Assembly (NCBI GenBank): GCA_023139105.1
Contig: JAGLOF010000052.1
Coordinates: forward strand, 13,825-77,824
DNA length: 64,000 bases
Reading direction: 5' to 3'
From: a bacterium
Lineage (GTDB): Bacteria > Zhuqueibacterota > QNDG01 > JAGLOF01
In this document: piece after piece, positions 2,717 to 29,068 of the stretch
Position numbering within the stretch: the stretch's first letter is position 1
How the letters are laid out: the number at the start of each line of letters is the position of its first letter
Notes under the pieces: generated by a model
Seen by the model: the letters and a program-made list of their open reading frames with translations, nothing else
Databases searched by the model: none
What the model was told of the DNA's origin: nothing
Translations under genes and position numbers: made by a program

Positions 2717-2718
2717 GC

Positions 2719-6294: not shown

Positions 6295-7220
6295 GGCAAA
6301 CCTTTGATTTTAAGAGTTGTTGCCCATCTGAGTTTATGCAAATCATGGAATAGCGCGGATTTTTTTTTCTTATGACGTATGAATTGAAATGAAATAGCAT
6401 AAATTCCGATTGATATGCAGCTAGTCGCTGCAACTACAAAACGATATAGTGTTGCGTATCCATATCCGTGGTGTTTTTTAAAATACATGTATAAACTCCA
6501 ACAGGATATTGTCTGAGGTGAAAAATCAGGTTCTTTGTTTATTGATCTATGTGCAAGATGAGTAACTTGTGTTTCAGCTTGGTAGTACAAATTATATCCT
6601 TCTTTTTGAATCATTCGGCACAGATCAATGTCCTCACCATAAAGAAAGAAATTTTTATCAAAACCGCCAAGCTCCTTAATTATTTTTTGTCGGCCTAATA
6701 AACAGGCTCCGCTTAATACTTTAGCAATTTGAGATTGTTCATAGTTGTAAAGGATGGGTGGTTTTATGCCTAGAAAACGATCCAGGCGTAATAGTGATAT
6801 GAGTTCATTTGTAATTGACGGATAGTCTCGAAGGCATTCTTGCTGTATAGCCCCATCTTCATTAAGGATTTTGGGGCCTAATAATGCGATTTGCTGATGT
6901 GATTCCAAAAAAATTATCATTTTGTCCAATGAATCTTTATATAGCAATGTGTCAGGATTCAAAAAAAGGACATACTTAGCATGACTGAGTTTTAGCCCTT
7001 GGTTTGAAGCTCGTCCAAATCCGGGATTGTCAGGATTAGTAATCAATTGGACATCAGTGAAAGCTTCGGCGATCACTTGTTTTGTACGGTCAGAGGAGTT
7101 GTTGTCAATGACAAATATCTTGATACAGTACTCAGTTTTCGATTCATAGATGGACCGAAGACATTGAATAATTTCTTTATCATTATTTCGTGTTACAATG
7201 ATGATTGAAAGATCCGTCAT
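6288..7220 (-). CDS. Glycosyltransferase family 2
   Basis: 310 aa. LSIIIVTRNN...VIDNNSSDRT N-terminus and an acidic FLYGEDIDLCRM motif typical of GT2 (rhamnosyltransferase-like). Confidence 0.85.
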   Translation of the reverse strand: MTDLSIIIVTRNNDKEIIQCLRSIYESKTEYCIKIFVIDNNSSDRTKQVIAEAFTDVQLITNPDNPGFGRASNQGLKLSHAKYVLFLNPDTLLYKDSLDKMIIFLESHQQIALLGPKILNEDGAIQQECLRDYPSITNELISLLRLDRFLGIKPPILYNYEQSQIAKVLSGACLLGRQKIIKELGGFDKNFFLYGEDIDLCRMIQKEGYNLYYQAETQVTHLAHRSINKEPDFSPQTISCWSLYMYFKKHHGYGYATLYRFVVAATSCISIGIYAISFQFIRHKKKKSALFHDLHKLRWATTLKIKGLPC

Positions 7221-8683
7221 GCTCTTTCCTTCAATATATGTTTTGTAATTAGTACTTTGAGTATTATTAAATCATGGCGTGGTATGCCCCCGATTAAGAC
7301 AAATACAAAAAGATATACTAAAATACTACAAATGAAAGTAATAATCCAAAACCATTGCTGTAGAACTAATAGCAACAAAGCTAAAGGAATAATTGCCAGA
7401 CATGCTGCCAAAGCGGTCTGGTTAAACCGGATGTGGTAGTTAAGTACTGACTTAACTTTATTGTAATAAAGCAAGAATGTAAGTAGCTCTGAAAGGACAG
7501 TTGAAATGCTTGCTCCCAAGAAAGAAATGCGTGGGATTAACAGTATGTTCATAGTAATGTTAAAAATTGTGCCAATAATAGCTATTTTCAATGCATCATT
7601 TTGATGATTTGCACTATATAACATTCTTAATAATGGAGCATTCATAAAAAGAAAAGGTATGGTCCAAATCAGTACTTGGACAGCGATGGCCGAATCTGCA
7701 AATTGAGAGCCAAAAATAAACATAATTATTTTAGGTGCCAATATTGTTATTATAATGGCAATTGGAAGGGCTGCAGCAAATAAATAGTTTAATCCCTTTT
7801 CTCCTGCGGCAAAAAAAGCTTGTCGGGATTCATGATAAAGACGTGATAATATTGGATAAAATGAACGGCTGAAGCCATAAGAAAGGGCCATAAAGAGTGT
7901 AATGAAATTGAACGCTACTGCATATTGTCCCGTTATAGAATCGCCAATCAGTGTTGATAGCATCACCAGATCAATACGTAGATAGATAATAGAAATAGCA
8001 CCCATTAATGCAAACGGGTAGGATTTTAACAGAAGGGTTTTTAATCTTGTGAATTTAAATATATAGTGCCACTTAAAGAAATATCGTTTTAGGATGTATT
8101 GAGTGAAAAGGCATTTAATTCCACTGATTAATACGAGACAAATAATGAGTATTTCAAGTTGGCCACCATAGAATTTGATAAATAAAGCTAAAATAACTTT
8201 AAGAATATTATAAGATACTTCCATGATTGCTATAAAATGTAGACGTTCAAAAGCGTTGAAAATTGCTTCTATGGATGTGGTGATATTCTCAAAAAATAGA
8301 GTTAAACAGAATAACAGGACAAGTTTGTTGACATCTGCTGATTTTCCCAGTAGTGGCAAGAAAATAAAAAGCAGAAGAATTGCTACTAAAGATAATCCGG
8401 TTTTAATTGTAACAGCATTCGACAGGTACTGTGATGCCTTGTTTTTATTTATTGATACTTCTCTTACAATGAGGTTGTCAAGGCCGAAACCTGAGATTAT
8501 AAACAAGATACTGATAAGGCCAACAGTAAATGAATATTTGCCAATGCCGATGTCTCCCAAATACCTGGCCATCAAAAAATAAAAAACGAATGTCAACCCT
8601 TTAGCCAGAATTTGTGAAGTTAGGAGGGATGATGTGTTTTTTATAAGGGTATAGTGGAGATTTCTTTTGCTTGATTTATCCAT
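7217..8683 (-). CDS. Polysaccharide flippase (Wzx, MOP superfamily)
   Basis: 488 aa with about 12-14 hydrophobic helices. The N-terminus LIKNTSSLLTSQILAKGLTFVFYFLMARYLG is typical of Polysacc_synt flippases. Confidence 0.8.
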   Translation of the reverse strand: MDKSSKRNLHYTLIKNTSSLLTSQILAKGLTFVFYFLMARYLGDIGIGKYSFTVGLISILFIISGFGLDNLIVREVSINKNKASQYLSNAVTIKTGLSLVAILLLFIFLPLLGKSADVNKLVLLFCLTLFFENITTSIEAIFNAFERLHFIAIMEVSYNILKVILALFIKFYGGQLEILIICLVLISGIKCLFTQYILKRYFFKWHYIFKFTRLKTLLLKSYPFALMGAISIIYLRIDLVMLSTLIGDSITGQYAVAFNFITLFMALSYGFSRSFYPILSRLYHESRQAFFAAGEKGLNYLFAAALPIAIIITILAPKIIMFIFGSQFADSAIAVQVLIWTIPFLFMNAPLLRMLYSANHQNDALKIAIIGTIFNITMNILLIPRISFLGASISTVLSELLTFLLYYNKVKSVLNYHIRFNQTALAACLAIIPLALLLLVLQQWFWIITFICSILVYLFVFVLIGGIPRHDLIILKVLITKHILKERA

Positions 8684-8700
8684 TAAATACCAAATATGGG

Positions 8701-9960
8701 TCAGGAATTCCTTTTAATAAATTTGGGAATATCATTTTTTAATGATTGTATTATTTCTAGAAAACGGGCATTGGATTCAGGATCAGAATATTTTAGTTTT
8801 TGCATGTATTCTATGAAAAATACAATCATCAAACCAAATCCAAAGCTTAATATACTTGCAATGATTACCATCAAAGCCCTTTTGGGTTTGGAGCGTTTAT
8901 ACGGTATTCGGGCTTGATCAAGTATTTGCACTGTAGGTGTATCTTTGGCTTCTTGTATTTTTGCTTGTTCATATTGTGGTAAAAGGAATTCCAATATTTT
9001 TTCTTGCAATGTAACTTCTCTAAATAGTCTGACGTATTGAAGCCCTATGCTGGGTAGTTGGTCAATAGGCATGAAGATATCTTTATTCGAAATCGAATCA
9101 TATTCAGGAGTTGCCGATAATAATGCAAAATATTTTTCTGAGATCACATTTTTTTGGTGTCGAATAGATAGCCAATCTGAATGTGCTGTTCCAACAGTCC
9201 TTTCCAATAGGCTCATTTCTATTTCTTTAGCAATTATTTGTGCTTTTAAGGCTGAAACTATCTCAATCATAGCGGAGGTCTGTTCTTGCAGTGCGATTGT
9301 ACCATGTGCCTCTTGGAATGAACGGAATTCTTCTTCAGCAAGTTTAATGGCATTAAGGTTTTGCATATACCGTTTTTCAATGAATAGTCTGGTATTGTGT
9401 GCTTTTTGCGTTTTATGCTGACGATTAACATGGTCCAGCTCTTGCATCATAAAGTCGGTTATATCTTTGGCCAGAACTCTTGCTTCATCATCATCTGATT
9501 TGTTTGCTATATATGGTGTCGCTGTTTCTACTGAAAGAGTAATCGTCCCATCTTCGTTGATGTCTATTGACATTTTTTCTGATAATGTACGGATAGCTTC
9601 TTCCATATGTTTTGAATTATATTTAGTTATCAAGTCAAATTTGTTTACTACGGATTCTCTAACAGTTTTACTGTTTAGTATTGCCAGAAATATATAACTT
9701 TCATCGGATAAGGCTCCTGGTCTCAAGCCCCCAAGACCTCCTATAGATAGATTACTTAAAATAGAAGAGACTCCCAGGCTGGCTGTTTCATCCGTTGGTG
9801 GAAGTAGTGTTGAAGTCGCTCGATAAGAACGAGGCATTAATAAACTAAAACATGCAACCAGAAAACCGATGAGCAGTGTGTTAATTATTAAAAATCGTCT
9901 CCATTTTACTATGATATGGAGATATGTGATCAGATTGGCTCTTTTTTTTGTATTTTGCAT
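8701..9960 (-). CDS. Polysaccharide co-polymerase / chain-length determinant (Wzz/GumC-like, no kinase domain)
   Basis: There is an N-terminal TM helix after WRRFL, a long coiled-coil periplasmic region and a C-terminal TM helix (MVIIASILSFGFGLMIVFFI). I placed the start at ATG 9960 (MQNTKKRA), which removes the overlap with the upstream gene. The longest ORF extends to 10005. Confidence 0.7.
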   Translation of the reverse strand: MQNTKKRANLITYLHIIVKWRRFLIINTLLIGFLVACFSLLMPRSYRATSTLLPPTDETASLGVSSILSNLSIGGLGGLRPGALSDESYIFLAILNSKTVRESVVNKFDLITKYNSKHMEEAIRTLSEKMSIDINEDGTITLSVETATPYIANKSDDDEARVLAKDITDFMMQELDHVNRQHKTQKAHNTRLFIEKRYMQNLNAIKLAEEEFRSFQEAHGTIALQEQTSAMIEIVSALKAQIIAKEIEMSLLERTVGTAHSDWLSIRHQKNVISEKYFALLSATPEYDSISNKDIFMPIDQLPSIGLQYVRLFREVTLQEKILEFLLPQYEQAKIQEAKDTPTVQILDQARIPYKRSKPKRALMVIIASILSFGFGLMIVFFIEYMQKLKYSDPESNARFLEIIQSLKNDIPKFIKRNS

Positions 9961-9982
9961 CAAAATATCCTGACTTCCATTA

Positions 9983-11269
9983 CTATTTATCAAACAGCCC
10001 GGCACTCTTGGCGGCCAGGATTAATGACGTTGCTGCAGTGACAATACGCAGGTAATTGCCGAAACGTTGATCCCAGTTTAAATGAAGGTGAACAATGTCG
10101 CCGGGTTCAACCATAACATCTGCACCTGACTCGGTTTTACCTGTACGGCTGTGATATACCTTGACACCTGTGATGTTCCCTGAACGGAAATCACCACCGG
10201 CCATGCCTGCATATTCTTTGGCTGTCAGGTTGAAGACATATGGGTAGGCACCGGGCTGACGCACAGAACCTTTCACATATACGTATTGAGAAGGCAGTAT
10301 TATACGGTCGTTGGTTTCTAATATGAACTTGAGATCGTATGTATCACCAATTTGAAAGGGATACAGGTACACATCCGTACCCTCAGTCTGCCGGATTACC
10401 AAAATTTTAGAGAGATCGGAATTCCGTTTTAACGCCCTTATGCGCTGTAGAAAAGTAAGCAGAGTCTCACCTTCGAGAATACGGTATGATCCTGAAGATT
10501 CCTGATCTGCTTCAACTTTAACCAGTTCGGCATTTAACCCAATGGGTGGTATGAAAATAATATCACCGCCTGTAACAAAGCTATCTGTATTTAAATTTCC
10601 TGTCAGCTCAAAGGCGTTAAGGTTGAAAATGCTTTTTGTGCTGTCTGTATGCCTGATCTCTATGCCGCCTTTCCAGGCACGCTCGGTAATGCCGCCGGCA
10701 AGAGTAATCATTTCCGAGATACGGTCAACTGCTCTGGCTATGTATGTACCGGGAAACTGTACTTCACCTACAACATGAACACGGAAAAAACGCAAGGCTT
10801 CCAATGACAGGCTGAGTTTGCTTCCTGCATAGACAGGTTGAGCCATATCAAGAACTTTGTTTCGGGCTTTTGTCAGTGTCAGTCCTGCAACATTAATTTC
10901 ACCAACCGATGGAATCAGCAGCTTGCCTTCAGGAGAGACCTGCAGTGGCAATTGATGCTCCAGTGCACCCCAAATATTGAAACTGAAGATGTCTCCGGGG
11001 CCGACAATGTATTTATTGGCATCCACAGCACCTTCCAGGGCTTCAACTTCTCCAAGCCGTTCCCGGAGCTTTATCTGTCTGTTACGTTGCCAGGCATTAA
11101 ATTCATCTCCGGTCATTTTATCAGCTTCAAACAGCTTTGAAAAGTCAACAGCCTTAGGCAAGCTGGATTGTTTTTCACGAACAGTCTGCGTTTCATCAAT
11201 GAGCTGGGCTATACAACTGCCGGCAGCTACTAAAAGCATCAGGCTGATTATCAGCTTTTTCAGTCTCAC
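9983..11269 (-). CDS. Polysaccharide export protein (Wza-like, Poly_export plus repeated SLBB domains)
   Basis: 428 aa with a GTG start. Signal peptide MRLKKLIISLMLLVAAGSC (possible lipobox). YIVGPGDIFSFNIWG...PEGKLLIPSVGEINVAGLT matches the Poly_export signature. GDII/GDIV repeats are SLBB-like. Confidence 0.8.
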   Translation of the reverse strand: MRLKKLIISLMLLVAAGSCIAQLIDETQTVREKQSSLPKAVDFSKLFEADKMTGDEFNAWQRNRQIKLRERLGEVEALEGAVDANKYIVGPGDIFSFNIWGALEHQLPLQVSPEGKLLIPSVGEINVAGLTLTKARNKVLDMAQPVYAGSKLSLSLEALRFFRVHVVGEVQFPGTYIARAVDRISEMITLAGGITERAWKGGIEIRHTDSTKSIFNLNAFELTGNLNTDSFVTGGDIIFIPPIGLNAELVKVEADQESSGSYRILEGETLLTFLQRIRALKRNSDLSKILVIRQTEGTDVYLYPFQIGDTYDLKFILETNDRIILPSQYVYVKGSVRQPGAYPYVFNLTAKEYAGMAGGDFRSGNITGVKVYHSRTGKTESGADVMVEPGDIVHLHLNWDQRFGNYLRIVTAATSLILAAKSAGLFDK

Positions 11270-11292
11270 TTGCAGTATTCCTCGGTTTGTCT

Positions 11293-12603
11293 TTATGCCT
11301 TAACTATTTTGTCTCTGCCTTCAGTTACATCTTTAGTTGCATTTCGTGTATCTACAACCAATTGAGCGTGTTTGACAATAAAATCATAGTCATAAATGCT
11401 GTGTGCTGTTGAGATAAAGACCACATCATATGATGCCAGGTTTTCAGGAGTCAGTTCAACCGACTCCATATCATAGCTGTATTTACGAACCTTGGGCATT
11501 ACAGGAATATGCGGATCATTATAGTCAACTTCGGCACCTCTGTCTTCAAACAGATGAATCAATTTCAATGTGGGGCTTTCACGCATATCATCAACGTCTT
11601 TTTTGTATGCGGCGCCAAGCATTAATATCCTTGCACCCTTAAGAGCTTTATTCCGTTCAGAAAGTGCCTGCATCACCTGCTCAACAACCCAGTATGGCAT
11701 GTATGTATTAATTTCACCTGCAAGTTCGATGAAACGCGTGGGCATATCATATTCCTTGGCCTTCCAGGTCAAGTAGAAGGGGTCAATGGGAATGCAATGG
11801 CCGCCAAGGCCGGGGCCGGGATAGAATGGCATAAAACCGAAAGGCTTTGTCGATGCAGCATCTATTACTTCCCATACATCAATGCCCATACGGTCCATTA
11901 TCATCTTCATCTCATTTGCCAGTGCAATATTGATGGATCTGAAAATGTTCTCCAGCAGCTTGGTGGCCTCTGCTGCCTGGCTGGAGGAGACTACGACGGT
12001 TTGTATAATAACGGCATCGTACAAAGCTTTGGCTATGCTGCGGCTTGCATCGTCATTTGCGCCTACTACCTTGGGGATAGTCCTGGTTGTAAAGTTTGGA
12101 TTGTTAGGGTCTTCACGTTCAGGGCTGAAGGCAAGGTAGAAGTCTTCTGCATATTTTAATCCTGAGGTCTCTAGAATAGGTTTCATGACCTCCATGGTTG
12201 TGCCTGGCCATGTAGAAGATTCCAAAACAACAAGCTGGTTTTTGCGCAGGTATGTTGCAATTGTTTCCGATGTGTTCTGTATATATGAAAGATCTGGCTG
12301 TTGATGTTTGTCCAGCGGAGTTGGTACTGCAACTACAATACAATCGGCCTCGGGAAGTCTGGAGAAATCCGTTGTACAGTCAAAGAGCCCTGTAGCATTC
12401 ATGGCAGAAATTCTATCATCGGAAATATGTTTAATATATGTTTTACCGGATTTTAAGGCTGTGATTTTGTGCTCGTCAATATCATAACCTATGACCTTAT
12501 AACCTTCTTCGATATATTCCAGCAACAACGGAAGACCTACATAGCCAAGGCCTATCATGCCAATTACAGCATCTTTGTTCTCAATTTTTAATTTGAGGTC
12601 CAT
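11293..12603 (-). CDS. Nucleotide-sugar dehydrogenase (UDP-N-acetyl-D-glucosamine 6-dehydrogenase, WbpA/TviB-like)
   Basis: 436 aa. GMIGLGYVGLPLLLEY Rossmann motif, GYDIDEHKITALKSGKTYIKHI, and catalytic GGHCIPIDP. Confidence 0.85.
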   Translation of the reverse strand: MDLKLKIENKDAVIGMIGLGYVGLPLLLEYIEEGYKVIGYDIDEHKITALKSGKTYIKHISDDRISAMNATGLFDCTTDFSRLPEADCIVVAVPTPLDKHQQPDLSYIQNTSETIATYLRKNQLVVLESSTWPGTTMEVMKPILETSGLKYAEDFYLAFSPEREDPNNPNFTTRTIPKVVGANDDASRSIAKALYDAVIIQTVVVSSSQAAEATKLLENIFRSINIALANEMKMIMDRMGIDVWEVIDAASTKPFGFMPFYPGPGLGGHCIPIDPFYLTWKAKEYDMPTRFIELAGEINTYMPYWVVEQVMQALSERNKALKGARILMLGAAYKKDVDDMRESPTLKLIHLFEDRGAEVDYNDPHIPVMPKVRKYSYDMESVELTPENLASYDVVFISTAHSIYDYDFIVKHAQLVVDTRNATKDVTEGRDKIVKA

Positions 12604-12616
12604 TGAGCTCTCCCTA

Positions 12617-13621
12617 TTAATGCGATTGTTTATATTGCTGACGGTAGTACTCTAAATACTCACCGCTTTTGATTTTTTTCCACCATGTCTCGTTATCCCT
12701 GTACCATGCCACGGTCTCTGCCATGGCATCTTCAAAGGTGTGGCGGGGTGCCCAATCAAGTGTCTTGATTTTAGAAGTATCAAGAGCATAACGTCTGTCA
12801 TGGCCCAGGCGGTCTTCCACATAGGTCATCAAAGATTCGGGTTTGCCCAGATCTTTGAGGATTAGCCCGGTTATTTCCAGGTTAGTCTTTTCATTGCCTG
12901 CACCAAGATTGTAGACCTCTCCATCGCCCCCACGTTCCATAACAGCTTCCACGCCTTCACAATTATCCACAACATAGAGCCAGTCACGTACATTAAGACC
13001 GTCACCATAAATAGGAAGGGACTTGTCTTCAATAGCATTTGTTGTAAAGAGTGATATTAGTTTCTCAGGATACTGATATGGACCAAAATTATTAGAGCTT
13101 CTGGGGATTACTACAGGTAGTTTATAAGTGACGTAATATGAATAAACCAGTCTGTCGGCTCCGCATTTGGATGCGGCATATGGGCTGGATGGATTCAGTG
13201 TGTCGGTTTCATTAAAGAATCCGTTTTCAGTTGAACCATATACTTCGTCAGTGGAGATCTGTACAAATCTGTCGATACTGTATTTGCGGGCGGCTTCAAG
13301 AAGTACAAAAGTGCCGAATACGTCGGTCTGTATGAAATCATCCGGGCTCCCTATGGAGCGGTCAACATGGCTCTCTGCGGCAAAGTTGACGATGATATCT
13401 ACTTCTTTAACCAGGGGATCAACAATAGATGCATCGCAGATATCACCTTTTACAAAACGGTATCTGTCATCTTTTTCAATATCACGCAAATTATCAAGAT
13501 TGCCTGCATAGGTCAGTTTGTCAAGATTGACAATTCGAATATTACTGTGTTTATTAAGCATGTACCGGATAAAATTACTGCCTATAAATCCGGCACCGCC
13601 GGTTACGAGTAGAGTGCGCAT
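12617..13621 (-). CDS. rfbB: dTDP-glucose 4,6-dehydratase
   Basis: MRTLLVTGGAGFIGSNF..., YAASKCGADRL (YxxxK), HDRRYALD. I placed the start at ATG 13621. The 19 extra residues of the longest ORF (MFSVFSVV...) are a translation of a 9-bp tandem repeat. Confidence 0.92.
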   Translation of the reverse strand: MRTLLVTGGAGFIGSNFIRYMLNKHSNIRIVNLDKLTYAGNLDNLRDIEKDDRYRFVKGDICDASIVDPLVKEVDIIVNFAAESHVDRSIGSPDDFIQTDVFGTFVLLEAARKYSIDRFVQISTDEVYGSTENGFFNETDTLNPSSPYAASKCGADRLVYSYYVTYKLPVVIPRSSNNFGPYQYPEKLISLFTTNAIEDKSLPIYGDGLNVRDWLYVVDNCEGVEAVMERGGDGEVYNLGAGNEKTNLEITGLILKDLGKPESLMTYVEDRLGHDRRYALDTSKIKTLDWAPRHTFEDAMAETVAWYRDNETWWKKIKSGEYLEYYRQQYKQSH

Positions 13622-13657
13622 GGAGTAATCCTGTTTGTAATTTGAGAGCAATGAAAC

Positions 13658-13684
13658 CACAGAAAACACAGAAAACACGGAAAA
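13658..13684. repeat. 9-bp tandem repeat: CACAGAAAA x2 plus CACGGAAAA
   Basis: Read directly from the sequence. It lies in the 167-bp spacer between the RmlC-like gene and rfbB. A second 9-mer pair (GTATTCAGT x2) is at 13714-13731. Confidence 0.9.
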
Positions 13685-13788
13685 GGGAGTTGCATTTTTT
13701 TAAGCCACTTCTGAGTATTCAGTGTATTCAGTGGTTAATTTTTTCCGATCCCGGTATCTTTAAATAATCGTAGAGCAATCTATACGAG

Positions 13789-14256
13789 TCAGCCCATCTT
13801 GATGCCCCAGTCGTAGGGTACATCGGGAGAATCAAAGTCCAGCCTGTGTTCGTCAGGAAGTTTATAATTATATGCCTCTGTAACGCAATTAACGGCAATG
13901 GCCTCTGTCTCGCTGATACATTTCCACCCATGATATACGTGATGTGGAATATGTACAAGAAGCGGTTTGTGGTCACCCAGAAAAAATTCATTAACTTCAC
14001 CGCATGTAGGCGAATCTTTTCTGTCGTCAAAGAGTACAAGCTTGAGCATGCCTTTAACTACAGTAACGTTGTCGTCTTGCAATTTATGATAGTGCCATGC
14101 CTTTATGACGCCGGGATAGGTTGTAGTCATATAAACCTGTCCGAAGCGTTCAAATTGATCATCATCCACTCGTAATATTTCCATGAGTCTACCCCGTTCG
14201 TCCGGTATAACACTCAATTTTTTTGTTGTAACGCCTTCTATCATTACAGTCTCCAT
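13789..14256 (-). CDS. RmlC-family cupin (dTDP-4-dehydrorhamnose 3,5-epimerase-like, short form)
   Basis: 155 aa. IPDERGRLMEI, KAWHYHK, DDRKDSPTCGE, IPHHVYHGW and DSPDVPYDW follow the RmlC pattern. It is shorter than canonical RmlC, so the exact activity is uncertain. Confidence 0.7.
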   Translation of the reverse strand: METVMIEGVTTKKLSVIPDERGRLMEILRVDDDQFERFGQVYMTTTYPGVIKAWHYHKLQDDNVTVVKGMLKLVLFDDRKDSPTCGEVNEFFLGDHKPLLVHIPHHVYHGWKCISETEAIAVNCVTEAYNYKLPDEHRLDFDSPDVPYDWGIKMG

Positions 14257-14303
14257 GTATAAACTTTAAGCTAGTAAAATATGTATGTAAAATCAATTAT
14301 TAA

Positions 14304-14867
14304 TTATGGATTACATGGCGCAGGCGGTGCATTTTCATCATAGTCCTGGCGTAATATGGCATATATAAGTTGATCCATGATCTGTCCGTTCTTAACAACG
14401 CTTTTTCTAAGACGCCCCTCTTTGATAAATCCTGTTTTTTTAAGAACACAACGTGTGGCTTGGTTGGACTCAAAGATATTGGCCTGAATTCTATTTAAAT
14501 TTATTGTTTCAAAGCCATATTTTAACAGTGCCCGTACAGCTTCTGTGGCTATTCCCTGTCCCCAGAAAGGCTCACCCAGCCAGAATCCAATTTCAGCTGT
14601 CATCCGGCTTACATCTCCTTGCAGGTTAAGACCAATACCGCCTATGCATTCATCTTGCATGACAATAGCAAAATAAGCTTCAACCGGTTGGTGCTCCACA
14701 AAATATAGCCAGGCTTCTGCGTTAGCCAAGGTGTATGGATTGGGAAACATATCTCTGAGCATACCGGCAACGCGAGGATTATTTGCATATTTAACCAGGG
14801 ACTGGCCATCATAATGACGGTAGCTTCTGACAATGCAATTATCAATTGAAATTGGAAGTTGAATCAT
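14304..14867 (-). CDS. GNAT family N-acetyltransferase (RimJ/RimL-like)
   Basis: IGFWLGEPFWGQGIATEAVRALLKYGFE is an acetyl-CoA binding motif. The preferred start is ATG 14867 (MIQLPISI). The longest ORF starts at TTG 14936. Confidence 0.8.
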   Translation of the reverse strand: MIQLPISIDNCIVRSYRHYDGQSLVKYANNPRVAGMLRDMFPNPYTLANAEAWLYFVEHQPVEAYFAIVMQDECIGGIGLNLQGDVSRMTAEIGFWLGEPFWGQGIATEAVRALLKYGFETINLNRIQANIFESNQATRCVLKKTGFIKEGRLRKSVVKNGQIMDQLIYAILRQDYDENAPPAPCNP

Positions 14868-15039
14868 ATACCTGTTCTTTTTCTGTTTACGAGAATGTAT
14901 AAAATAAGGAAAAAAGCGGGGAATGGCAAGGTACAAATCGTTTTGGTCGGGTCTTTCTCAAAAGTAAAAACAGTGCATTATCACTGTTATGTAAATTTAA
15001 TGAAGTCCTGACAAAAAAACAGGGATGACAAAAAATTTA

Positions 15040-21363: not shown

Positions 21364-21498
21364 ATGACTACAGCCTTGGTTGTCGGAATTGCAAAAGAGT
21401 ACTATGACATTGGCCGTAAGGGGCACTCAGCCAGTGTTAAAGACATTGTCGCTAATGTAGCGGGCATTTTGCTCGGGGGATATGTATTGTCATGGTGA
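21364..21498 (+). CDS. Possible 44-aa ORF or gene remnant (YfiM/DUF2279-like C-terminal motif)
   Basis: MTTALVVGIAKEYYDIGRKGHSASVKDIVANVAGILLGGYVLSW. It is in the same frame as the DUF5683 gene but separated from it by the tandem stops TAG-TGA. The RBS is weak. Confidence 0.25.
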   Translation: MTTALVVGIAKEYYDIGRKGHSASVKDIVANVAGILLGGYVLSW

Positions 21499-22556
21499 CG
21501 TCTTCCGATTTTTCGTTTTATGAATCTGTGGGTGCGGTTCATCTGCATTCACTGCATTCTGACGGTGCTCTGGCTATTCCGGAAATTGCTGAGATTGCCG
21601 GAACCAAGGGTCTTGATTTTCTTATGTTTTCAGATCATAATACTCTTGAACCAAAACGCCACGGTCTTGAGGGATGGTATGGCCGCATTCTGGTATTGAT
21701 CGGATATGAGATAAATGATGAGGATGACAAAAATCACTATCTTGCATTCCGGCTCAATGAGGAAGTGCCGGGCCGCAAAGCTGTTGAATATGTTGCTCAG
21801 GTAAAAGGCGCAGGTGGCATTGGTATTATTGCACATCCCGCTGAAAAACGTAATTATTTTGAGGCTTATCCTCCGTATCCGTGGACTGCTTGGGATGCTG
21901 AAGGATATGATGGAATTGAAATATGGAATCAGCTGTCAGAATGGATGGAAGGGCTGACATGGCGTAATGCATTATGGAGGATTTGGCACCCTCTGCGTTC
22001 TATTCGTTTTCCGGTTCCTGAGATCATGCAGAGATGGGACAGGTTGAATCGTGAACGGAGAGTAATTGGTGTAGGCGGCATTGATGTTCATGCTTTTACA
22101 ATCAAATTAATGGGATTTATTCCGGTTAAGATTTATCCGTATAAAGTGCAGTTTAAATCCATAAGAACACATGTGTTTACTCCGGAAGAGCCCGGAGCTG
22201 ATGCCGGTTTTCATCAATCTGAAGCCGCTCTCTATCAAGGACTTGTTTCCGGACACTGTTTTGTCTCCAATTATTCCTTGGGAGATGCGCGAGGTTTTCG
22301 TTTTTACGGCGAAATAAATGATGAGATTGTCGTAATGGGCAGCAGACGTGTTTTTGATGGCACGTTGTCCCTTACAGTAACAGCGCCACAGCAGGGTCAC
22401 ATCTGTCTGTTGAGAGACGGAACCGTAATTGAGGAGGCTGTGGGGCAGTCGCTTCAATGCAAGGTAAACATGCCTGGCGTGTACAGAGTTGAAATCTGTC
22501 GAAAAGGCAGAGGATGGATTTATTCAAATCCAATAGTTTTAACAGGAGTTTTGTAG
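21492..22556 (+). CDS. PHP-domain metallohydrolase (CehA/McbA-like)
   Basis: 354 aa. GAVHLHSLHSDG...LMFSDHN...IIAHP...GGIDVHA match the PHP metal-binding motifs. Confidence 0.75.
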   Translation: MVTSSDFSFYESVGAVHLHSLHSDGALAIPEIAEIAGTKGLDFLMFSDHNTLEPKRHGLEGWYGRILVLIGYEINDEDDKNHYLAFRLNEEVPGRKAVEYVAQVKGAGGIGIIAHPAEKRNYFEAYPPYPWTAWDAEGYDGIEIWNQLSEWMEGLTWRNALWRIWHPLRSIRFPVPEIMQRWDRLNRERRVIGVGGIDVHAFTIKLMGFIPVKIYPYKVQFKSIRTHVFTPEEPGADAGFHQSEAALYQGLVSGHCFVSNYSLGDARGFRFYGEINDEIVVMGSRRVFDGTLSLTVTAPQQGHICLLRDGTVIEEAVGQSLQCKVNMPGVYRVEICRKGRGWIYSNPIVLTGVL

Positions 22557-23970: not shown

Positions 23971-24900
23971 ATGAGGTATTTTGTACGTTTATTTGATTGG
24001 CTCTTTCTGCTTCGGCCTACATTATTTTATCCAATATGGACATATTATCTAGCAGGTCATTGGAGTGCTAAAGCTTTTGGTCACGGTGAAAATGGTTTTC
24101 ATCGTTCAATGGGGCTTTTCGGATCTATTGCTGCCCTCTCTCTGGTAGTCGGAAGCATATACATATTAAATCAGATTCGTGACCGTGAGACGGACAGGAT
24201 TAACCATAAACTATTTTTATTGTCAGAAGGGCATATTCCTGTTGGCGGTGCCTATATTGAAGCAGGCCTGCTTGCTGTCATTGGCCTGCTCTGGGGGTTC
24301 TGGATTGATCAGCATGTGGGTTTTGTGCTCCTGGCATTATTGGCTATCTCGGGTTACGGTTATAATTATCCGCCATTTTGCTGGAAAGACAGGGCCATTA
24401 TGGGTCTTGTGACAAATGCTGTGTCAGGGTATGTTTTATATAGCCTGGGTTGGGCTACAGCCGGTGGCCATCCTGTGCTGCCCATGAGGGGGCTGGCATA
24501 CATGCTTGCCGGAGCATGTGTCTATCTTAACACTACACTCCCTGATCTTAAGGGTGATGCAGCTTCAGGAAAGATTACATTTGGTGTTAAATATGGTGTA
24601 AAGGCTACTGCCCGCTGGGCGTTGATTCTTGAAATTGCCACAGTAATTGTGGCAGGATATTTTAAAGAATGGATTTTATTTATTCCTGCATTAGTGGTTT
24701 TACCTTTGTATGTATGGGGGGCAACACGTTCAACTGTGGATGAAATAATGCGTGCTACCAAGTATTCGGTGCTGGCACTGGCTATTGGTGTCTGTGTTGT
24801 ATTTCCACTCTATCTTATCCCGGTGTTTGTTGTTTTTTTTATGACGCGTTGGTATTACAAAGCGCGTTTCAATTTTGACTATCCGAATTTTAAAAGTTAA
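23971..24900 (+). CDS. UbiA-superfamily aromatic/glycerol prenyltransferase (candidate DGGGP-synthase-like enzyme)
   Basis: 309 aa with about 8-9 TM helices. First Asp-rich motif NQIRDRETDRIN (NxxxDxxxD). Second motif LPDLKGDAASGK. Confidence 0.75.
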   Translation: MRYFVRLFDWLFLLRPTLFYPIWTYYLAGHWSAKAFGHGENGFHRSMGLFGSIAALSLVVGSIYILNQIRDRETDRINHKLFLLSEGHIPVGGAYIEAGLLAVIGLLWGFWIDQHVGFVLLALLAISGYGYNYPPFCWKDRAIMGLVTNAVSGYVLYSLGWATAGGHPVLPMRGLAYMLAGACVYLNTTLPDLKGDAASGKITFGVKYGVKATARWALILEIATVIVAGYFKEWILFIPALVVLPLYVWGATRSTVDEIMRATKYSVLALAIGVCVVFPLYLIPVFVVFFMTRWYYKARFNFDYPNFKS

Positions 24901-24909
24901 TGAAGGCCT

Positions 24910-25092
24910 ATGACATCGACAATTGAATATATCCGTAGCCGTTGTGATTTTTGCGGTACTTGTGTGGGCGTCTGCCCAGCTGATGCTATTGAACTGGATG
25001 AGGCGGATTTACGTATTGTGCAGGCAGAGTGTCTACTTTGTATGGCCTGTGTCAATGTTTGTCCTCTGGGAGCATTGGAGGAGAAATTATGA
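24910..25092 (+). CDS. 2x[4Fe-4S] ferredoxin
   Basis: 60 aa with two CxxCxxCxxxCP motifs: CDFCGTCVGVCP and CLLCMACVNVCP. The stop overlaps the start of the next gene as ATGA (25089-25092). Confidence 0.9.
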   Translation: MTSTIEYIRSRCDFCGTCVGVCPADAIELDEADLRIVQAECLLCMACVNVCPLGALEEKL

Positions 25093-26264
25093 ACAGGCAC
25101 TATGACATTATTATTGTGGGAGCGGGCCCTGCAGGCGCATGGACAGCCAGGACAGCGGCAGAGTGCGGTGCTGCTGTTTTGTTATTAGAGAAAGACCGTG
25201 AAGTCGGCGTACCTGTGCGCTGTGCTGAGGGTGTGTCTGAAAAAGGCATGAAACTGATTTTCCCCAGTATACCCGATCGCTGGATTGCTCAAATCATCAC
25301 CGGCGGTCGTCTGGTCGCGCCTGATGGGACTGCTGTTGACGCCTATCCCGGAGAACGGGGTTTCGTGCTGCATCGCAAATTATTTGATTGGGATCTTGCT
25401 GCTATGGCTGTTGATAGTGGTGCTGTTCTTCTGTGCAAAGCCAATGTAAAGGCACTTATTAAAGAAAATGGCAAAATTGCTGGTGTTCAAGCTGAAGTGC
25501 TGGGTGAGAAGCGTAGCTTTTTTGCACCTCTGGTAATTGGTGCCGATGGCACAGAATCCCGAATAGGACGCTGGGCCGGTATTCAAACGGCAGTACCGTA
25601 TGAGGATATGGATACATGTGTTCAGGCAACAATGGCAGGCCTGGATTTTGACTGCACTAAAGTAGAATTTTATGTTGGTGATAATATTGCACCCGGAGGA
25701 TATGCCTGGGTATTCCCAAAGGGGCCGGATACAGCTAATGTAGGCCTTGGTATTGGTGGAGCCTATGCTGCTGAAAAGAGACCTGTTGAGTATCTTTATG
25801 ATTTTATGGACAGACGTTTTCCCGGCAAATCAGCCGTGACAATGGTTGCAGGCGGCGTGGCTACTGCCAAGCCGCTAAAGACACTTGTAGCCGATGGTTT
25901 GATGCTTGTAGGTGATGCAGGGCGTCAGGCTAATCCATTGACAGGTGGTGGTATTGTAAATGCGCTGATAGCCGCAGAACATGCAGGCAAGTTGGCTGCC
26001 AAAGCCGTGTCTGATGGTGATGTCTCTGTCAGAGCATTGATGCCTTATCAAAAAGCATGGCACAAAGGTGAAGGTAAGATTAATCGTCTCTCTTTTAAAT
26101 TGAAAGAAGCTGTCTACCGTTTTTCAGATGATGATTTTAACCGTACAGCTCAGATGCTTTTGAAGATTCCCGAATCTAAACGTACAGCTTTTCAGATATT
26201 CAAGACAGCTCTATTTAATGAACCCCGGTTGCTTATTGATGCAGCTAAAATATTTATTACATAA
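25089..26264 (+). CDS. Geranylgeranyl reductase family flavoprotein
   Basis: YDIIIVGAGPAGAWTA...LLLEKDREVGVPVRCAEGVS...IGADGTESRI...APGGYAWVFPKGPDTANVGLGI is the geranylgeranyl reductase family pattern. The start is at ATG 25089, not 25029. Confidence 0.88.
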   Translation: MNRHYDIIIVGAGPAGAWTARTAAECGAAVLLLEKDREVGVPVRCAEGVSEKGMKLIFPSIPDRWIAQIITGGRLVAPDGTAVDAYPGERGFVLHRKLFDWDLAAMAVDSGAVLLCKANVKALIKENGKIAGVQAEVLGEKRSFFAPLVIGADGTESRIGRWAGIQTAVPYEDMDTCVQATMAGLDFDCTKVEFYVGDNIAPGGYAWVFPKGPDTANVGLGIGGAYAAEKRPVEYLYDFMDRRFPGKSAVTMVAGGVATAKPLKTLVADGLMLVGDAGRQANPLTGGGIVNALIAAEHAGKLAAKAVSDGDVSVRALMPYQKAWHKGEGKINRLSFKLKEAVYRFSDDDFNRTAQMLLKIPESKRTAFQIFKTALFNEPRLLIDAAKIFIT

Positions 26265-26280
26265 TCATCAGGATTATTAA

Positions 26281-26844
26281 ATGCGTGTATGGACTGTACC
26301 CAATGTCTTGTCTGTCTTGAGACTTGTACTTTTATATCCGATTTTTTATTATTTGATTCATCAGCGTCCATGGATTGCTGTTGCATTTATGTTCGCCGGT
26401 GTGATGTCTGATATGCTGGATGGTTATATTGCCCGGCGTTTCAATCAGCAATCTGATTTAGGCCGCATTTTAGATCCGCTTATTGACAAGATTAATGTGA
26501 TTGCTGTAGCAGGATACCTGACTTTATCTGCACATTATAATTTTCCTCTCTGGATGTTCATATTTCTGATATTAAGGGAGTTGATTGTTATTGTCGGAGG
26601 CATGGCAGTAATGCGTGGGCAGAAGATAGTAATGGAGTCAACGGTTCCGGGAAAGAGGTCTGCCTTTTTTACCGGTCTGAGCCTGCCGCTCTATGCTGTC
26701 AATCTACAGCCATGGGCATTGATTGTTCTGCTTTTTGGGTTAATTTTAACCATATATTCAACAAGTATTTACTATCAACGTTATCGCAAACATTTACGCC
26801 AGGCTGCTCCTGCGGGTAATATAGATCAAGAAGGAGCTCTGTGA
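26281..26844 (+). CDS. CDP-alcohol phosphatidyltransferase
   Basis: 187 aa. SDMLDGYIARRFNQQSDLGRILDPLIDK matches D-x2-DG-x2-AR-x8-G-x3-D-x3-D. Confidence 0.88.
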   Translation: MRVWTVPNVLSVLRLVLLYPIFYYLIHQRPWIAVAFMFAGVMSDMLDGYIARRFNQQSDLGRILDPLIDKINVIAVAGYLTLSAHYNFPLWMFIFLILRELIVIVGGMAVMRGQKIVMESTVPGKRSAFFTGLSLPLYAVNLQPWALIVLLFGLILTIYSTSIYYQRYRKHLRQAAPAGNIDQEGAL

Positions 26845-27761
26845 TGAGCAGTTTATGGAGAGATGGTCTGGGAAAGACTCGCAAGGGACTTGTTGGCAGG
26901 ATTACAGGTCTTTTTAAGAATACAACAGTGCTGGATGATGATATTCTGGATGATTTGGAAGAGTTGTTAATAGAGAGCGATATTGGTGTTGATACGGCCA
27001 TGGTGTTGATTGAAGGGCTGCGCAAGAGGATCTCCGGCCTATCCGGAGACATGTCTCAGAAGATTAAAGAGGCATTAAGGCTGGAGATTGAGGCGATGCT
27101 GCCTGATTCTACGGAGGGAAAAGACTTGCGGCAGCACCACCCGCATGTGATACTTGTTGTAGGTGTAAACGGATCGGGAAAAACCACAACCCTGGGTAAA
27201 CTGGCCGGTAGATATCATAAGGCCGGTAAGAAAGTTATGTTGGTGGGTGCAGATACATTTCGTGCGGCAGCGGCAGAGCAGCTTCAGGTTTGGGCTGACC
27301 GATCCGGTTCCATGATTATCCGGCAGGCATACGGTTCTGATCCTGCGTCTGTTGCCTATGATGGTATGGATGCAGCCATTGCCCGTGATGTAGATGTAGT
27401 TCTGATTGACACTGCCGGACGCCTTCAGAACAAGGTCAATTTAATGGAGGAGCTTCGGAAGATACGCAGGACGATTCACAAAAGAATGCCGGATGCTCCT
27501 CATGATGTATTATTGGTATTAGACGCCAATACAGGGCAGAACGGTCTTGCTCAAGCTAAAATTTTTACCGAGGCAGTTGATGTAACAGAGATAGCCTTGA
27601 CCAAACTTGATGGTACTGCAAGAGGCGGTATTGTTCTGGCTGTACAGCGTGAGACAGGCATTCCTGTGCGTTGGGCAGGATTGGGAGAGGGCATGGAAGA
27701 TCTGCTTCCTTTTGATGCAGCTGAATTTGTAGAAGGACTATTTTCGGACAATAATTCATGA
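26841..27761 (+). CDS. ftsY: Signal recognition particle receptor FtsY
   Basis: GVNGSGKTTTLGKLA, DTAGR and TKLDGTARGG. The start is GTG 26841 or ATG 26844 (AGGAG lies 7 nt upstream of the latter). Confidence 0.95.
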   Translation: MMSSLWRDGLGKTRKGLVGRITGLFKNTTVLDDDILDDLEELLIESDIGVDTAMVLIEGLRKRISGLSGDMSQKIKEALRLEIEAMLPDSTEGKDLRQHHPHVILVVGVNGSGKTTTLGKLAGRYHKAGKKVMLVGADTFRAAAAEQLQVWADRSGSMIIRQAYGSDPASVAYDGMDAAIARDVDVVLIDTAGRLQNKVNLMEELRKIRRTIHKRMPDAPHDVLLVLDANTGQNGLAQAKIFTEAVDVTEIALTKLDGTARGGIVLAVQRETGIPVRWAGLGEGMEDLLPFDAAEFVEGLFSDNNS

Positions 27762-29068
27762 TTGATACTCCAAAATTTAAAAAAGTCACATTGGTAACAT
27801 TGGGTTGCCCGAAGAATGAGGTTGATTCGGAATTTCTTGCAGGCGAACTTTCCAGGCAGGGATTAATATTGGTAGATGATGCAGAATCTGCCGATCTCAT
27901 AATAATAAATACCTGTGGTTTCATAGAAGCTGCCAAGCGTGAATCAATTGATGCCATTCTTTCGGCAACGACCATGAAAGAGGAATATCCTGACAAACGT
28001 GTTATCGTATGGGGCTGTCTCTCAGAGCGCTATAAAAATGAAATAAAAAATGAAATTCCTGAAGTAGATGCTTATTTTGGGGTAGAATCATTTCAAGATA
28101 TAGGAAAGTGGCTATGCGGTCAACGTTATCGTGTACCTTCTGATGTGCATAAAGGCCGTATTCTCTCCACACCCACCCATGTAGCTTATCTTAAAATAGC
28201 TGATGGTTGTGATCATAAATGTTCTTTCTGTGCAATTCCCGGCATCAAAGGGGCATTTCACAGCCGCTCCATGGAGAGTCTGCTGGAAGAGGCTCAGATT
28301 CTGGTAGCCGCAGGAGTAAAAGAGCTTATTTTGATAGCTCAGGACACTTCAAGATATGGTGTTGATCTTGAAGGTGATATAACACTGGTGTCATTGCTGA
28401 GACAATTAATTCAGATATGTGGGCTGGAGTGGATTCGCATCATGTATGTTCATCCTCTGCATCTTACCGAAGAACTGATAGACATTATTGCAGATGAACC
28501 GAAAATTGTAAAATATATTGATATGCCTCTACAGCATATATCAGATAATGTACTTTGCCTTATGAAACGCGGGCATGATGGCAAGAGGGTAGACCAGCTA
28601 CTCAAACGTATGAAGAGACGAATACCTGATCTAGTGTTGAGAACGGCTTTCATAGTGGGTTTTCCAGGTGAGTCTGAAGCAGATTTTGAAGAGTTGTTAG
28701 ATTTTGTCGAAACTGTCAGATTTGATCGTATGGGAGCTTTTATCTACTCTAAAGAAGAGGGTACATCGGCATCACTATTGGCTGATGAAATCCCGATTGA
28801 AACGGCACAATACAGATTTGATAGCTTAATGGCCGTGCAACTGGAGATTTCTGAAGCTCATAATGAAAAGTACATAGGTTCTATTATATCTGTAATTGTT
28901 GATGGCTATGATGATATCGAAGAGCTTCATTACGGTAGATCTCAGGGTGACGGGCTGGACATTGATCAATTGGTATGGATCAATGGAAAACCTCCTATAG
29001 GTCAGATTGTTTTTGTACTAATTGAATCGTCATCAACATATGATTTATATGGAAGCTGGAGAATCTGA
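27758..29068 (+). CDS. rimO: Ribosomal protein S12 methylthiotransferase
   Basis: LVTLGCPKNEVDSE, the radical SAM motif CDHKCSFCAIP and a C-terminal TRAM-like domain. ATGA overlap with ftsY. Confidence 0.88.
   Translation: MIDTPKFKKVTLVTLGCPKNEVDSEFLAGELSRQGLILVDDAESADLIIINTCGFIEAAKRESIDAILSATTMKEEYPDKRVIVWGCLSERYKNEIKNEIPEVDAYFGVESFQDIGKWLCGQRYRVPSDVHKGRILSTPTHVAYLKIADGCDHKCSFCAIPGIKGAFHSRSMESLLEEAQILVAAGVKELILIAQDTSRYGVDLEGDITLVSLLRQLIQICGLEWIRIMYVHPLHLTEELIDIIADEPKIVKYIDMPLQHISDNVLCLMKRGHDGKRVDQLLKRMKRRIPDLVLRTAFIVGFPGESEADFEELLDFVETVRFDRMGAFIYSKEEGTSASLLADEIPIETAQYRFDSLMAVQLEISEAHNEKYIGSIISVIVDGYDDIEELHYGRSQGDGLDIDQLVWINGKPPIGQIVFVLIESSSTYDLYGSWRI

Follow-up and report, generated by a model that had tools for sequence, protein, structure and literature searches.

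The locus

The 64-kb stretch of DNA analyzed here (hereafter the window; contig JAGLOF010000052.1) comes from an uncultured bacterium and carries, on its plus strand, consecutive genes for a UbiA-family membrane protein, a ferredoxin, a geranylgeranyl reductase (GGR) and a CDP-alcohol phosphatidyltransferase. A preliminary description of the sequence had proposed that these genes form an archaeal-type isoprenoid lipid locus. Our data uphold the association with such a pathway, based on the archaeal type of the reductase and ferredoxin and on the linkage of these genes elsewhere, but not the role given to the UbiA-family protein, namely that of digeranylgeranylglyceryl phosphate (DGGGP) synthase (DGGGPS).

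The first gene (23971-24900) encodes a 309-aa membrane protein of the prenyltransferase fold (PF01040), which we call UbiA-X. After 9 nt follows the gene for a 60-aa 2x[4Fe-4S] ferredoxin (24910-25092), a Fer4 dicluster protein with two CxxCxxCxxxCP motifs. Its stop codon overlaps the start codon of the FAD-dependent GGR (25089-26264, 391 aa; TIGR02032, PF22578) in the sequence ATGA; the mechanically called open reading frame (ORF) of GGR opens earlier, with a GTG at 25029, and it is the ATG at 25089 that forms the overlap. Another 16 nt separate GGR from the gene for a divergent, PgsA-like CDP-alcohol phosphatidyltransferase (26281-26844, 187 aa; PF01066), whose membership in the module is tentative. 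The ORFs and junction sequences agree exactly with the positions and spacing first reported for this row, and Pfam confirms the domain identities of all four products (UbiA, Fer4, GGR_cat and CDP-OH_P_transf). Further upstream on the same strand, a gene at 21492-22556 encodes a 354-aa PHP-superfamily (CehA/McbA-like) metallohydrolase (NF038032), with purF between it and UbiA-X.

An archaeal-type reductase paired with a ferredoxin

GGR scores 199.6 bits on TIGR02032 (cutoff 158.8) and 87.5 bits on its catalytic-domain model, PF22578 GGR_cat (gathering threshold 27), and has an FAD-binding N-terminus. The closest solved relative is the digeranylgeranylglycerophospholipid (DGGGPL) reductase of Thermoplasma (PDB 3oz2, E 2.9e-62). 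All parts of the diagnostic motif set listed in PMC10821996 (FAD motif, catalytic Cys, PxxYxWxFP cavity and LxGD) can be found in the translation: GxGxxG as VGAGPAG, the Cys in VPVRCAEG, PxxYxWxFP as PGGYAWVFP, and LxGD as LVGDAG. The two signatures quoted in the preliminary description, VPVRCAEGVS and GGYAWVFPKG, are both present. The archaeal DGGGPL reductase equivalog models give 225.8 bits (NF041160, cutoff 780) and 169.8 bits (NF041080, cutoff 580), compared to 108 bits for BchP/ChlP (cutoff 343) and 48.5 bits for MenJ (cutoff 700). As judged from model scores, GGR is nearest to the archaeal lipid type, yet it is the equivalog of no curated set. With TIGR02032 passed, 3oz2 the best match, and BchP/ChlP and MenJ far off, the earlier assignment to the archaeal type is borne out.

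In Methanosarcina acetivorans, GGR requires the ferredoxin encoded beside it, which is its specific in vivo reductant (Isobe et al. 2014, as described in PMC10821996); the precedent named in the preliminary description is correct in substance. The window pair resembles that of M. acetivorans in the adjacency of the genes; here the two are in addition coupled in translation and conserved, with fusions in some relatives. It differs in that the host is bacterial and the electron transfer is predicted, and the likeness considered is that of gene arrangement. In 16 metagenomic loci, ferredoxin and GGR form one continuous ORF (for example, L132 6555-7985, 476 aa, with Fer4 and GGR_cat domains), which lends Rosetta-stone support to the partnership. 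By analogy, the window ferredoxin would pass low-potential electrons to the FAD of GGR, and GGR would saturate the geranylgeranyl chains of membrane lipids by hydrogenating their double bonds.

Across its whole length, the window GGR also shows 44% identity to the enzyme of NIOZ-UU1, a Cloacimonetes metagenome-assembled genome (MAG) from the work that put forward archaeal-type lipids for FCB bacteria (PMC7852524). Upstream of its GGR gene, NIOZ-UU1 encodes a dicluster ferredoxin of 70 aa, with 45% identity to that of the window. On NODE_12935 (4981-6962; PMC7852524 Table S5), a hicB/hicA toxin-antitoxin pair is all that separates the two genes. PMC7852524 does not discuss this ferredoxin. Public gene calls on DNA identical to ours skip the 60-aa ferredoxin at 24910-25092, leaving a gap between UbiA-X and GGR, and the same is true at L085 (7913-8102). 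Automated annotation of these genomes probably under-reports the ferredoxin partner of GGR.

Conservation of the gene row

We scanned one genome per GTDB species and found 176 relatives of UbiA-X, in KSB1, Calditrichota, Marinimicrobia/Fidelibacterota, Zhuqueibacterota and unclassified MAGs. Eighty loci were fetched, 67 of them with enough downstream sequence to be evaluated. The ferredoxin-GGR pair lies directly 3' of the UbiA homolog in 47 of the 67 (KSB1, Zhuqueibacterota, Marinimicrobia, Calditrichia), with the GGR start mostly 175-350 nt past the UbiA end. The pairing of GGR with a two-cluster ferredoxin, inferred at the outset from one genome, is therefore real: it is conserved in these 47 loci and fused in the 16 mentioned above. 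A CDP-alcohol transferase gene is present in 38 of the 67 loci, including seven without ferredoxin-GGR, and is absent from nine that have the pair. Hence, adjacency of UbiA-X and ferredoxin-GGR is common but not universal, and the transferase varies partly independently. Across the 80 fetched loci, a syntenic block is recognizable in the order PHP-like hydrolase, purF, UbiA, ferredoxin, GGR, CDP-alcohol transferase, FtsY, RimO and GWxTD protein.

The published description of Fidelibacter multiformis, a possible carrier of UbiA-X, was considered as a source of lipid data and set aside. It reports fatty acids as methyl esters only, among which ether isoprenoids would not show.

UbiA-X forms a clade apart from DGGGPS

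UbiA-X belongs to the UbiA superfamily, with a PF01040 score of 77.3 bits (gathering threshold 34.2). Its AlphaFold2 model (pLDDT 90.9) was compared with solved structures using Foldseek, yielding TM-scores of 0.57-0.71 to AfUbiA, MjDGGGPS, UBIAD1 and ApUbiA; AfUbiA and MjDGGGPS were best, at ∼0.6-0.66. This search of the predicted structure confirms superfamily membership, while acceptors are not distinguishable by fold. Residues N67/D71/D75, K80, Y131, K139 and D192/D196 are invariant in UbiA-X. The first and third Asp-rich motifs are present, as is the Y...K motif, but all of these are common to the whole superfamily, and hence non-discriminating; specific to the family are an N-terminal DxxFxxRP...W motif and a C-terminal YYKxRFxFxYP motif.

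Curated models place UbiA-X far from any characterized enzyme. On the DGGGPS models applied (NF009521, NF009512, NF009522 and NF009523), the window protein reached 22.6, 24.1 and 35.1 bits, versus cutoffs of 296, 278 and 269. For a genuine bacterial DGGGPS, from locus L077, the corresponding values were 251, 99 and 252 bits. The top-scoring models were ChlG (44 bits, cutoff 313) and BchG (40 bits), with the model for decaprenyl-phosphate phosphoribosyltransferase (DPPR synthase) at 30 bits and MenA at 29 bits (cutoff 264); no UbiA or CyoE model was listed, and all equivalogs were far below cutoff. For the UbiA-X member of L077, the top models were of a haloarchaeal-type "prenyltransferase". 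When the family profile was compared to solved structures, AfUbiA matched best (1e-20), followed by ChlG (2e-14), MjDGGGPS (1e-11) and DPPR synthase (2e-9); with E up to 10 allowed, ApUbiA, MenA, UBIAD1 and haem O synthase gave no match. UbiA-X thus falls outside the quinone and haem prenyltransferases; a place inside these clades was the result that, according to the preliminary description, would have refuted the lipid proposal.

A small neighbor-joining tree (100 bootstraps, with partial PDB sequences) gave a consistent picture. All 16 UbiA-X sequences formed one clade (88% bootstrap), sister to AfUbiA (100%), and all 16 lay outside a DGGGPS clade made up of MjDGGGPS and four bacterial sequences (100%). 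Within UbiA-X, the window protein belongs to a subclade of KSB1, Zhuqueibacterota, Marinimicrobia and Calditrichia members (100%). Its identity to the DGGGPS of L077 is 24% over 192 residues. On sequence grounds, then, UbiA-X is not orthologous to DGGGPS and represents a separate UbiA subfamily.

Comparison with individual structures points the same way. MjDGGGPS (PDB 6M31) shares with UbiA-X the fold, ∼nine transmembrane helices (TM ∼0.61-0.66), and the NxxxDxxxD, DxxxD and Y...K motifs. It differs in sequence (∼19-24% identity), in the 22-24 bits that UbiA-X obtains on DGGGPS models, in its clade, in the extra N- and C-terminal motifs of UbiA-X, and in having RP(x)SG after motif 1 where UbiA-X has KLF(L)xxxG. 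AfUbiA of Archaeoglobus fulgidus (PDB 4TQ3) is the nearest solved relative by profile, fold and tree, albeit at ∼20% identity.

An exhaustive profile search (E up to 1e-30) put the size of the UbiA-X family at ∼394 clusters at 50% identity. Relatives in a collection of 5.8 billion proteins carry generic names only, and a broader search, seeded with an alignment of remote members, returned only further UbiA-X proteins, again generically named. One candidate, P0088 ("Candidatus Cloacimonas sp. 4484_209"), had been expected to be a Cloacimonetes DGGGPS beside GGGPS (geranylgeranylglyceryl phosphate synthase, of which PcrB is a homolog). It is instead a member of UbiA-X, there is no PcrB gene, and its neighborhood consists of glycosyltransferase, deacetylase and tetratricopeptide repeat (TPR) genes.

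Clusters that join UbiA-X with DGGGPS and GGGPS

The decisive locus is L077, with the order UbiA-X, two small ORFs, DGGGPS, ferredoxin, GGR and GGGPS. The second UbiA gene of this locus, 0.8 kb downstream of UbiA-X, clearly encodes DGGGPS (NF009521, 251 bits; NF009523, 252 bits; full-length match to MjDGGGPS, E 1e-43). The start of the GGGPS gene (PF01884, 102 bits; TIGR01769, 163.7 bits versus a cutoff of 161.55) overlaps the GGR stop. Scanning metagenomes with a GGGPS alignment yielded 80 loci, and the cluster loci among them come without taxonomy. Thirteen of the 80 share, on one strand, the arrangement [LpxD]-polysaccharide deacetylase-UbiA-X-(pyruvyl-transferase-like)-552-aa protein-DGGGPS-ferredoxin-GGR-GGGPS, and in two further loci of this LpxD-anchored type UbiA-X is cut by the locus end. 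A compact form, LpxD-UbiA-X-DGGGPS-ferredoxin-GGR-GGGPS, is seen in L108 and L109. In a WOR-3 genome, GGR lies ∼2 kb from UbiA-X.

Altogether, UbiA-X is next to a genuine DGGGPS gene in at least 16 loci. The presence of both in the same operon-like cluster indicates that UbiA-X is an additional enzyme and not the synthase of the second ether bond. Together with the model scores and the separate clade, these loci argue against the original proposal of a DGGGP synthase role for the window protein. The window order UbiA-X-ferredoxin-GGR looks like the LpxD-type cluster minus DGGGPS and GGGPS.

Villanueva et al. 2020 (PMC7852524) demonstrated that Cloacimonetes genes encode active GGGP and DGGGP synthases, and the supplement reports GGGPS and DGGGPS homologs in KSB1 and Calditrichaeota genomes. 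As given there, the filter for homologs was blastp E <1e-10, coverage ≥70% and a DGGGPS annotation. UbiA-X proteins match a DGGGPS query with E 3e-9 to 5e-4 over ∼55-60% of the query (1 Mb database) and would fail this filter; therefore, the reported homologs should be canonical enzymes that coexist with UbiA-X. We infer that KSB1 and Calditrichaeota hold canonical DGGGPS besides UbiA-X.

Set beside the archaeal-type gene set of the FCB group, as presented in PMC7852524, the window locus has the same type of GGR (44% identical to that of NIOZ-UU1), a homologous ferredoxin upstream, and a host from the same superphylum. In both cases CarS and sn-glycerol-1-phosphate (G1P) dehydrogenase are not seen nearby, and a bacterial PgsA-type enzyme has been proposed there for head groups. 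The FCB set differs in being defined by GGGPS and canonical DGGGPS, neither of which is in the window. The window UbiA is of a different clade, and that paper mentions no ferredoxin, second UbiA or PHP hydrolase.

Proteins related to the L077 DGGGPS occur in Candidatus Poribacteria under the name geranylgeranylglycerol-phosphate geranylgeranyltransferase. In Poribacteria genomes, DGGGPS and GGGPS genes are 1.5 kb apart, after bamA-skp-lpxD. A search with a fused DGGGPS+GGGPS protein retrieved, among the matches listed, only DGGGPS-type proteins, mostly from Poribacteria, with no GGGPS or KSB1-type DGGGPS among them. Archaeal-type lipid genes directly follow bamA-skp(ompH)-lpxD in Poribacteria and related contigs (L095/L096, 8627-13081; L108, 3444-8726; L132, 81-8741). 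In typical Gram-negatives, fabZ-lpxA-lpxB occupy this position. Upstream of the Poribacteria DGGGPS gene, and overlapping its start, is a ∼48-aa stretch that matches the UbiA-X C-terminus (54% identity, 50 bits; L097/L098, 5318-5461; L095, 9855-10004). Judging from this similarity, it may be the remnant of a deleted UbiA-X gene.

Other members of the family are found in a setting unlike that of the window. In L081-L084 and L088-L091 (WOR-3 and "Cloacimonas sp. 4484_209"-like), a gene for a ∼320-aa TPR protein always lies 3' of UbiA-X, and the flanks often include genes for a family 4 glycosyltransferase (GT4), a polysaccharide deacetylase, a family 2 glycosyltransferase (GT2), and a PEMT-like methyltransferase or DUF6798 protein.

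A PHP-type hydrolase accompanies UbiA-X

The 354-aa protein encoded upstream of purF has no Pfam match but aligns to the whole of NF038032, the CehA/McbA metallohydrolase domain model, with 74 bits. The 552-aa protein of the cluster loci hits the same model at 101-111 bits and has an extra N-terminal region of ∼170 aa. Pairwise BLAST between the two was not significant (E 0.13), and their homology was detected by profile-profile comparison only (hhalign, 97.7% probability, E 2e-12, 302 columns). A PHP gene lies upstream of UbiA-X in most genome loci, and in Calditrichaceae it does so directly, with an ATGA overlap; the companion occurs in both UbiA-X subclades. As a pair, the two proteins recur in KSB1, Zhuqueibacterota, Marinimicrobia, Calditrichota, WOR-3, Stahlbacteria and lineages resembling Poribacteria (∼400 clusters at 50% identity). 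On these data, the PHP-type metallohydrolase is a conserved partner of UbiA-X.

The CDP-alcohol phosphatidyltransferase and the rest of the window

The product of the fourth gene scores 114.5 bits on PF01066 and has the motif Dx2DGx2ARx8Gx3Dx3D. It is PgsA-like but below the cutoffs of the models for pgsA (TIGR00560, 81.2 bits versus 109.1) and ClsA (82 bits versus 240). Archaeal head-group synthase models (archaetidylserine/archaetidylinositol-phosphate) gave 41, 36 and 26 bits against cutoffs of 180, 240 and 200. The protein is thus of bacterial PgsA-like, not archaeal, type; its gene stands in a row with the housekeeping genes FtsY and RimO and is loosely tied to ferredoxin-GGR. Its functional link to the other three genes is weak. 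It may supply both kinds of CDP-activated lipid with their head group, or it could simply be the housekeeping pgsA.

The close packing extends past the four genes on both sides. Only 17 nt separate the end of purF from the start of UbiA-X, and 4-nt overlaps join the transferase gene to FtsY (26841-27761) and FtsY to RimO (27758-29068). Since such overlaps also join unrelated genes (FtsY, RimO), overlap alone says little about shared function. A promoter/terminator scan of the locus gave counts near the shuffle expectation, which carry no information on operon limits.

Identical DNA is found in NCBI assembly GCA_030635125.1 (contig DAOVZL010000001.1). Hallmarks of the FCB group are present in the window, namely a type IX secretion system sorting domain, DUF5683 and a GWxTD protein. 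The remaining genes are housekeeping genes (purF/purN/purH, MreBCD-PBP2-RodA-Lgt) and two separate exopolysaccharide/O-antigen-like clusters, at 433-14936 (minus strand) and 42344-63000 (plus strand). The end of the second cluster encodes a carrier protein, an AMP-ligase, an ornithine/diaminopimelate decarboxylase and a PIG-L deacetylase. Inside the same cluster, G+C content rises to 0.52-0.54 between 48000 and 58000, compared to ∼0.40-0.45 on both sides. This stretch, which carries genes for asparagine synthase, a methyltransferase, a DAO-type oxidoreductase, a radical SAM/SPASM protein, an epimerase and GT2, may be a horizontally acquired segment. From 15000 to 64000, GC skew is steadily and strongly positive and nearly all genes are on the plus strand, which fits a leading-strand segment distant from an origin or terminus switch.

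Interpretation of the locus

In our interpretation, the locus is one piece of the isoprenoid lipid pathway of "archaeal type" described in bacteria, comprising a chain-saturation unit (ferredoxin and GGR) and an additional enzyme, UbiA-X, with GGGPS and DGGGPS located elsewhere; we consider the case for this interpretation to be evenly balanced. The invariance of both Asp-rich motifs in UbiA-X fits the two-Mg2+ prenyltransferase mode with a prenyl-diphosphate donor, rather than the phosphoribosyl pyrophosphate (PRPP) mode of Rv3806c (PMC10994848). The sequence suggests that UbiA-X is most likely a Mg2+-dependent enzyme that prenylates a lipid acceptor, with a prenyl diphosphate (probably geranylgeranyl diphosphate) as donor. 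It would act on top of canonical GGGPS and DGGGPS, not in their place; the genes for these two enzymes presumably lie outside the window, in another part of the genome. The PHP hydrolase (21492-22556) would work with UbiA-X, processing its substrate or product.

Several observations weigh against this interpretation. No GGGPS/PcrB, DGGGPS, G1P dehydrogenase or CarS gene was found in the window or in the ∼10 kb past its end, either in Pfam and NCBIfam scans of window ORFs or in phmmer/tblastn searches with PDB-verified PcrB and with real bacterial GGGPS and DGGGPS sequences. The ferredoxin-GGR pair is not adjacent to UbiA-X in 20 of the 67 genomes, 11 of which have a Calditrichaceae-type UbiA-FtsY order and seven a UbiA-transferase-FtsY order. 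The subclade of the window shows long housekeeping synteny (RidA, DUF5683, PHP, purF ... FtsY, RimO, GWxTD), such that adjacency may partly reflect inherited gene order rather than function. Elsewhere, UbiA-X occurs with genes for glycosyltransferases, polysaccharide deacetylase, pyruvyl transferase and TPR proteins, contexts that hint at a role in envelope glycans. Finally, a text search of the structure paper of AfUbiA found no natural substrate for that protein; consequently, the relationship to AfUbiA yields no function for UbiA-X.

The glycan contexts bear on one alternative, which we regard as unlikely but the best of those considered: UbiA-X acts on a non-glycerol acceptor, either an envelope component or a cofactor, GGR saturates the side chain, and the link to ether lipids is one of mere neighborhood. 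Variants include a polyprenyl-phosphate sugar carrier (as for DPPR synthase), a quinone- or pigment-like head, and isoprenoid elongation. The recurrent neighbors of UbiA-X (polysaccharide deacetylase, GT4/GT2, pyruvyl transferase, TPR, DUF6798) and the location of clusters directly after bamA-skp-lpxD would fit such a role, as would the ranking of ChlG/BchG and DPPR synthase among the top models and the haloarchaeal-type matches of the L077 member; against this, all of the ChlG/BchG/DPPR scores are far below cutoff, and UbiA, MenA, UBIAD1 and haem O synthases show no match at the sequence level. The combination of a UbiA-family transferase with a flavoenzyme of the GGR family that saturates the prenyl chain has parallels in ChlG/BchG with ChlP/BchP and in MenA with MenJ, but scores on the respective models are too low, and photosynthesis and quinone genes are absent nearby. 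Rv3806c, the decaprenyl-phosphate phosphoribosyltransferase (PDB 8J8J), offers another parallel: it has the UbiA fold, some UbiA-X neighbors are likewise glycan-related, it uses a lipid phosphate substrate, and a phosphatase comes next in its pathway. The PHP hydrolase could have a similar part, removing the phosphate from a phospho-sugar lipid. However, the profile match to Rv3806c covers only the N-terminal half (E 2e-9), and Rv3806c binds PRPP via a K/R-cluster mode (PMC10994848), whereas UbiA-X retains both Asp-rich motifs, including the second. Also, the compact loci L108 and L109, which have no glycan genes, retain UbiA-X with DGGGPS-ferredoxin-GGR-GGGPS.

A second alternative, which we judge improbable, is that there is no functional module at all: gene order is simply inherited, ferredoxin-GGR serves a pathway encoded elsewhere, UbiA-X is an unrelated housekeeping enzyme, and the last gene is an ordinary pgsA. 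The block from PHP and purF through UbiA-X to FtsY, RimO and GWxTD is indeed syntenic across several phyla, Calditrichaceae retain UbiA-X-FtsY without ferredoxin-GGR, and both the 4-nt overlaps with FtsY and RimO and the partial independence of the transferase can be read in this way. However, UbiA-X is near GGR in three distinct gene-order contexts (the KSB1 type, WOR-3, and LpxD-anchored with DGGGPS and GGGPS), and shared gene-order ancestry alone hardly explains this proximity.

Least probable of all, in our estimation, is that UbiA-X is the DGGGP synthase of this lineage, making the second ether bond, and that the four genes form a complete operon for archaeal-like or mixed ether lipids, covering prenyl transfer, saturation and head-group attachment. 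In its favor, DGGGPS ranks close to UbiA-X among characterized enzymes by profile and fold, KSB1-type UbiA-X sits just before ferredoxin-GGR, where cluster-type loci have DGGGPS, and no canonical DGGGPS was seen near UbiA-X in the subclade of the window, but the well-supported separate clade, the 22-24 bits on DGGGPS models (versus 251 for a genuine bacterial enzyme), the side-by-side occurrence of the two genes, which argues for different functions, and the canonical homologs reported for KSB1 and Calditrichaeota in PMC7852524 all speak against it.

Implications

Read as part of an archaeal-type lipid pathway, the locus extends the known bacterial gene set by an unrecognized UbiA-family enzyme and a hydrolase partner. 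The published pathway (GGGPS, DGGGPS, GGR) comes with no G1P source, no CarS and no lipid evidence from cultures, and full-text literature searches returned no description of the second UbiA, the PHP partner, the ferredoxin-GGR fusion or the compact cluster. A more specific proposal, to which we give tentative and limited credence, is that UbiA-X and the PHP hydrolase perform a novel step of bacterial isoprenoid ether-lipid synthesis. Candidates include a third prenylation step; the attachment of a prenyl group to a bacterial glycerolipid, or to the sn-1-glycerol head group of phosphatidylglycerol, with subsequent release by hydrolysis; and some other way of making up for the absent G1P dehydrogenase or CarS. 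If the proposal is true, these bacteria would make a class of lipid that the textbook accounts of archaeal and bacterial synthesis do not predict.

For annotation, these findings call for caution, in that a UbiA gene beside GGR should not be labeled DGGGPS by default. For experiments, ferredoxin and GGR, sometimes fused, constitute a defined two-component system, and compact UbiA-X-DGGGPS-ferredoxin-GGR-GGGPS clusters exist that could be cloned in one piece. Whether bacteria make archaeal-type lipids, and by what route, matters for the "lipid divide" and for tracing isoprenoid ether biomarkers in sediments to their sources. Because the lipid genes are accompanied by an extra, widespread member of the UbiA family and by a PHP hydrolase, the real bacterial product may differ from plain archaeol.

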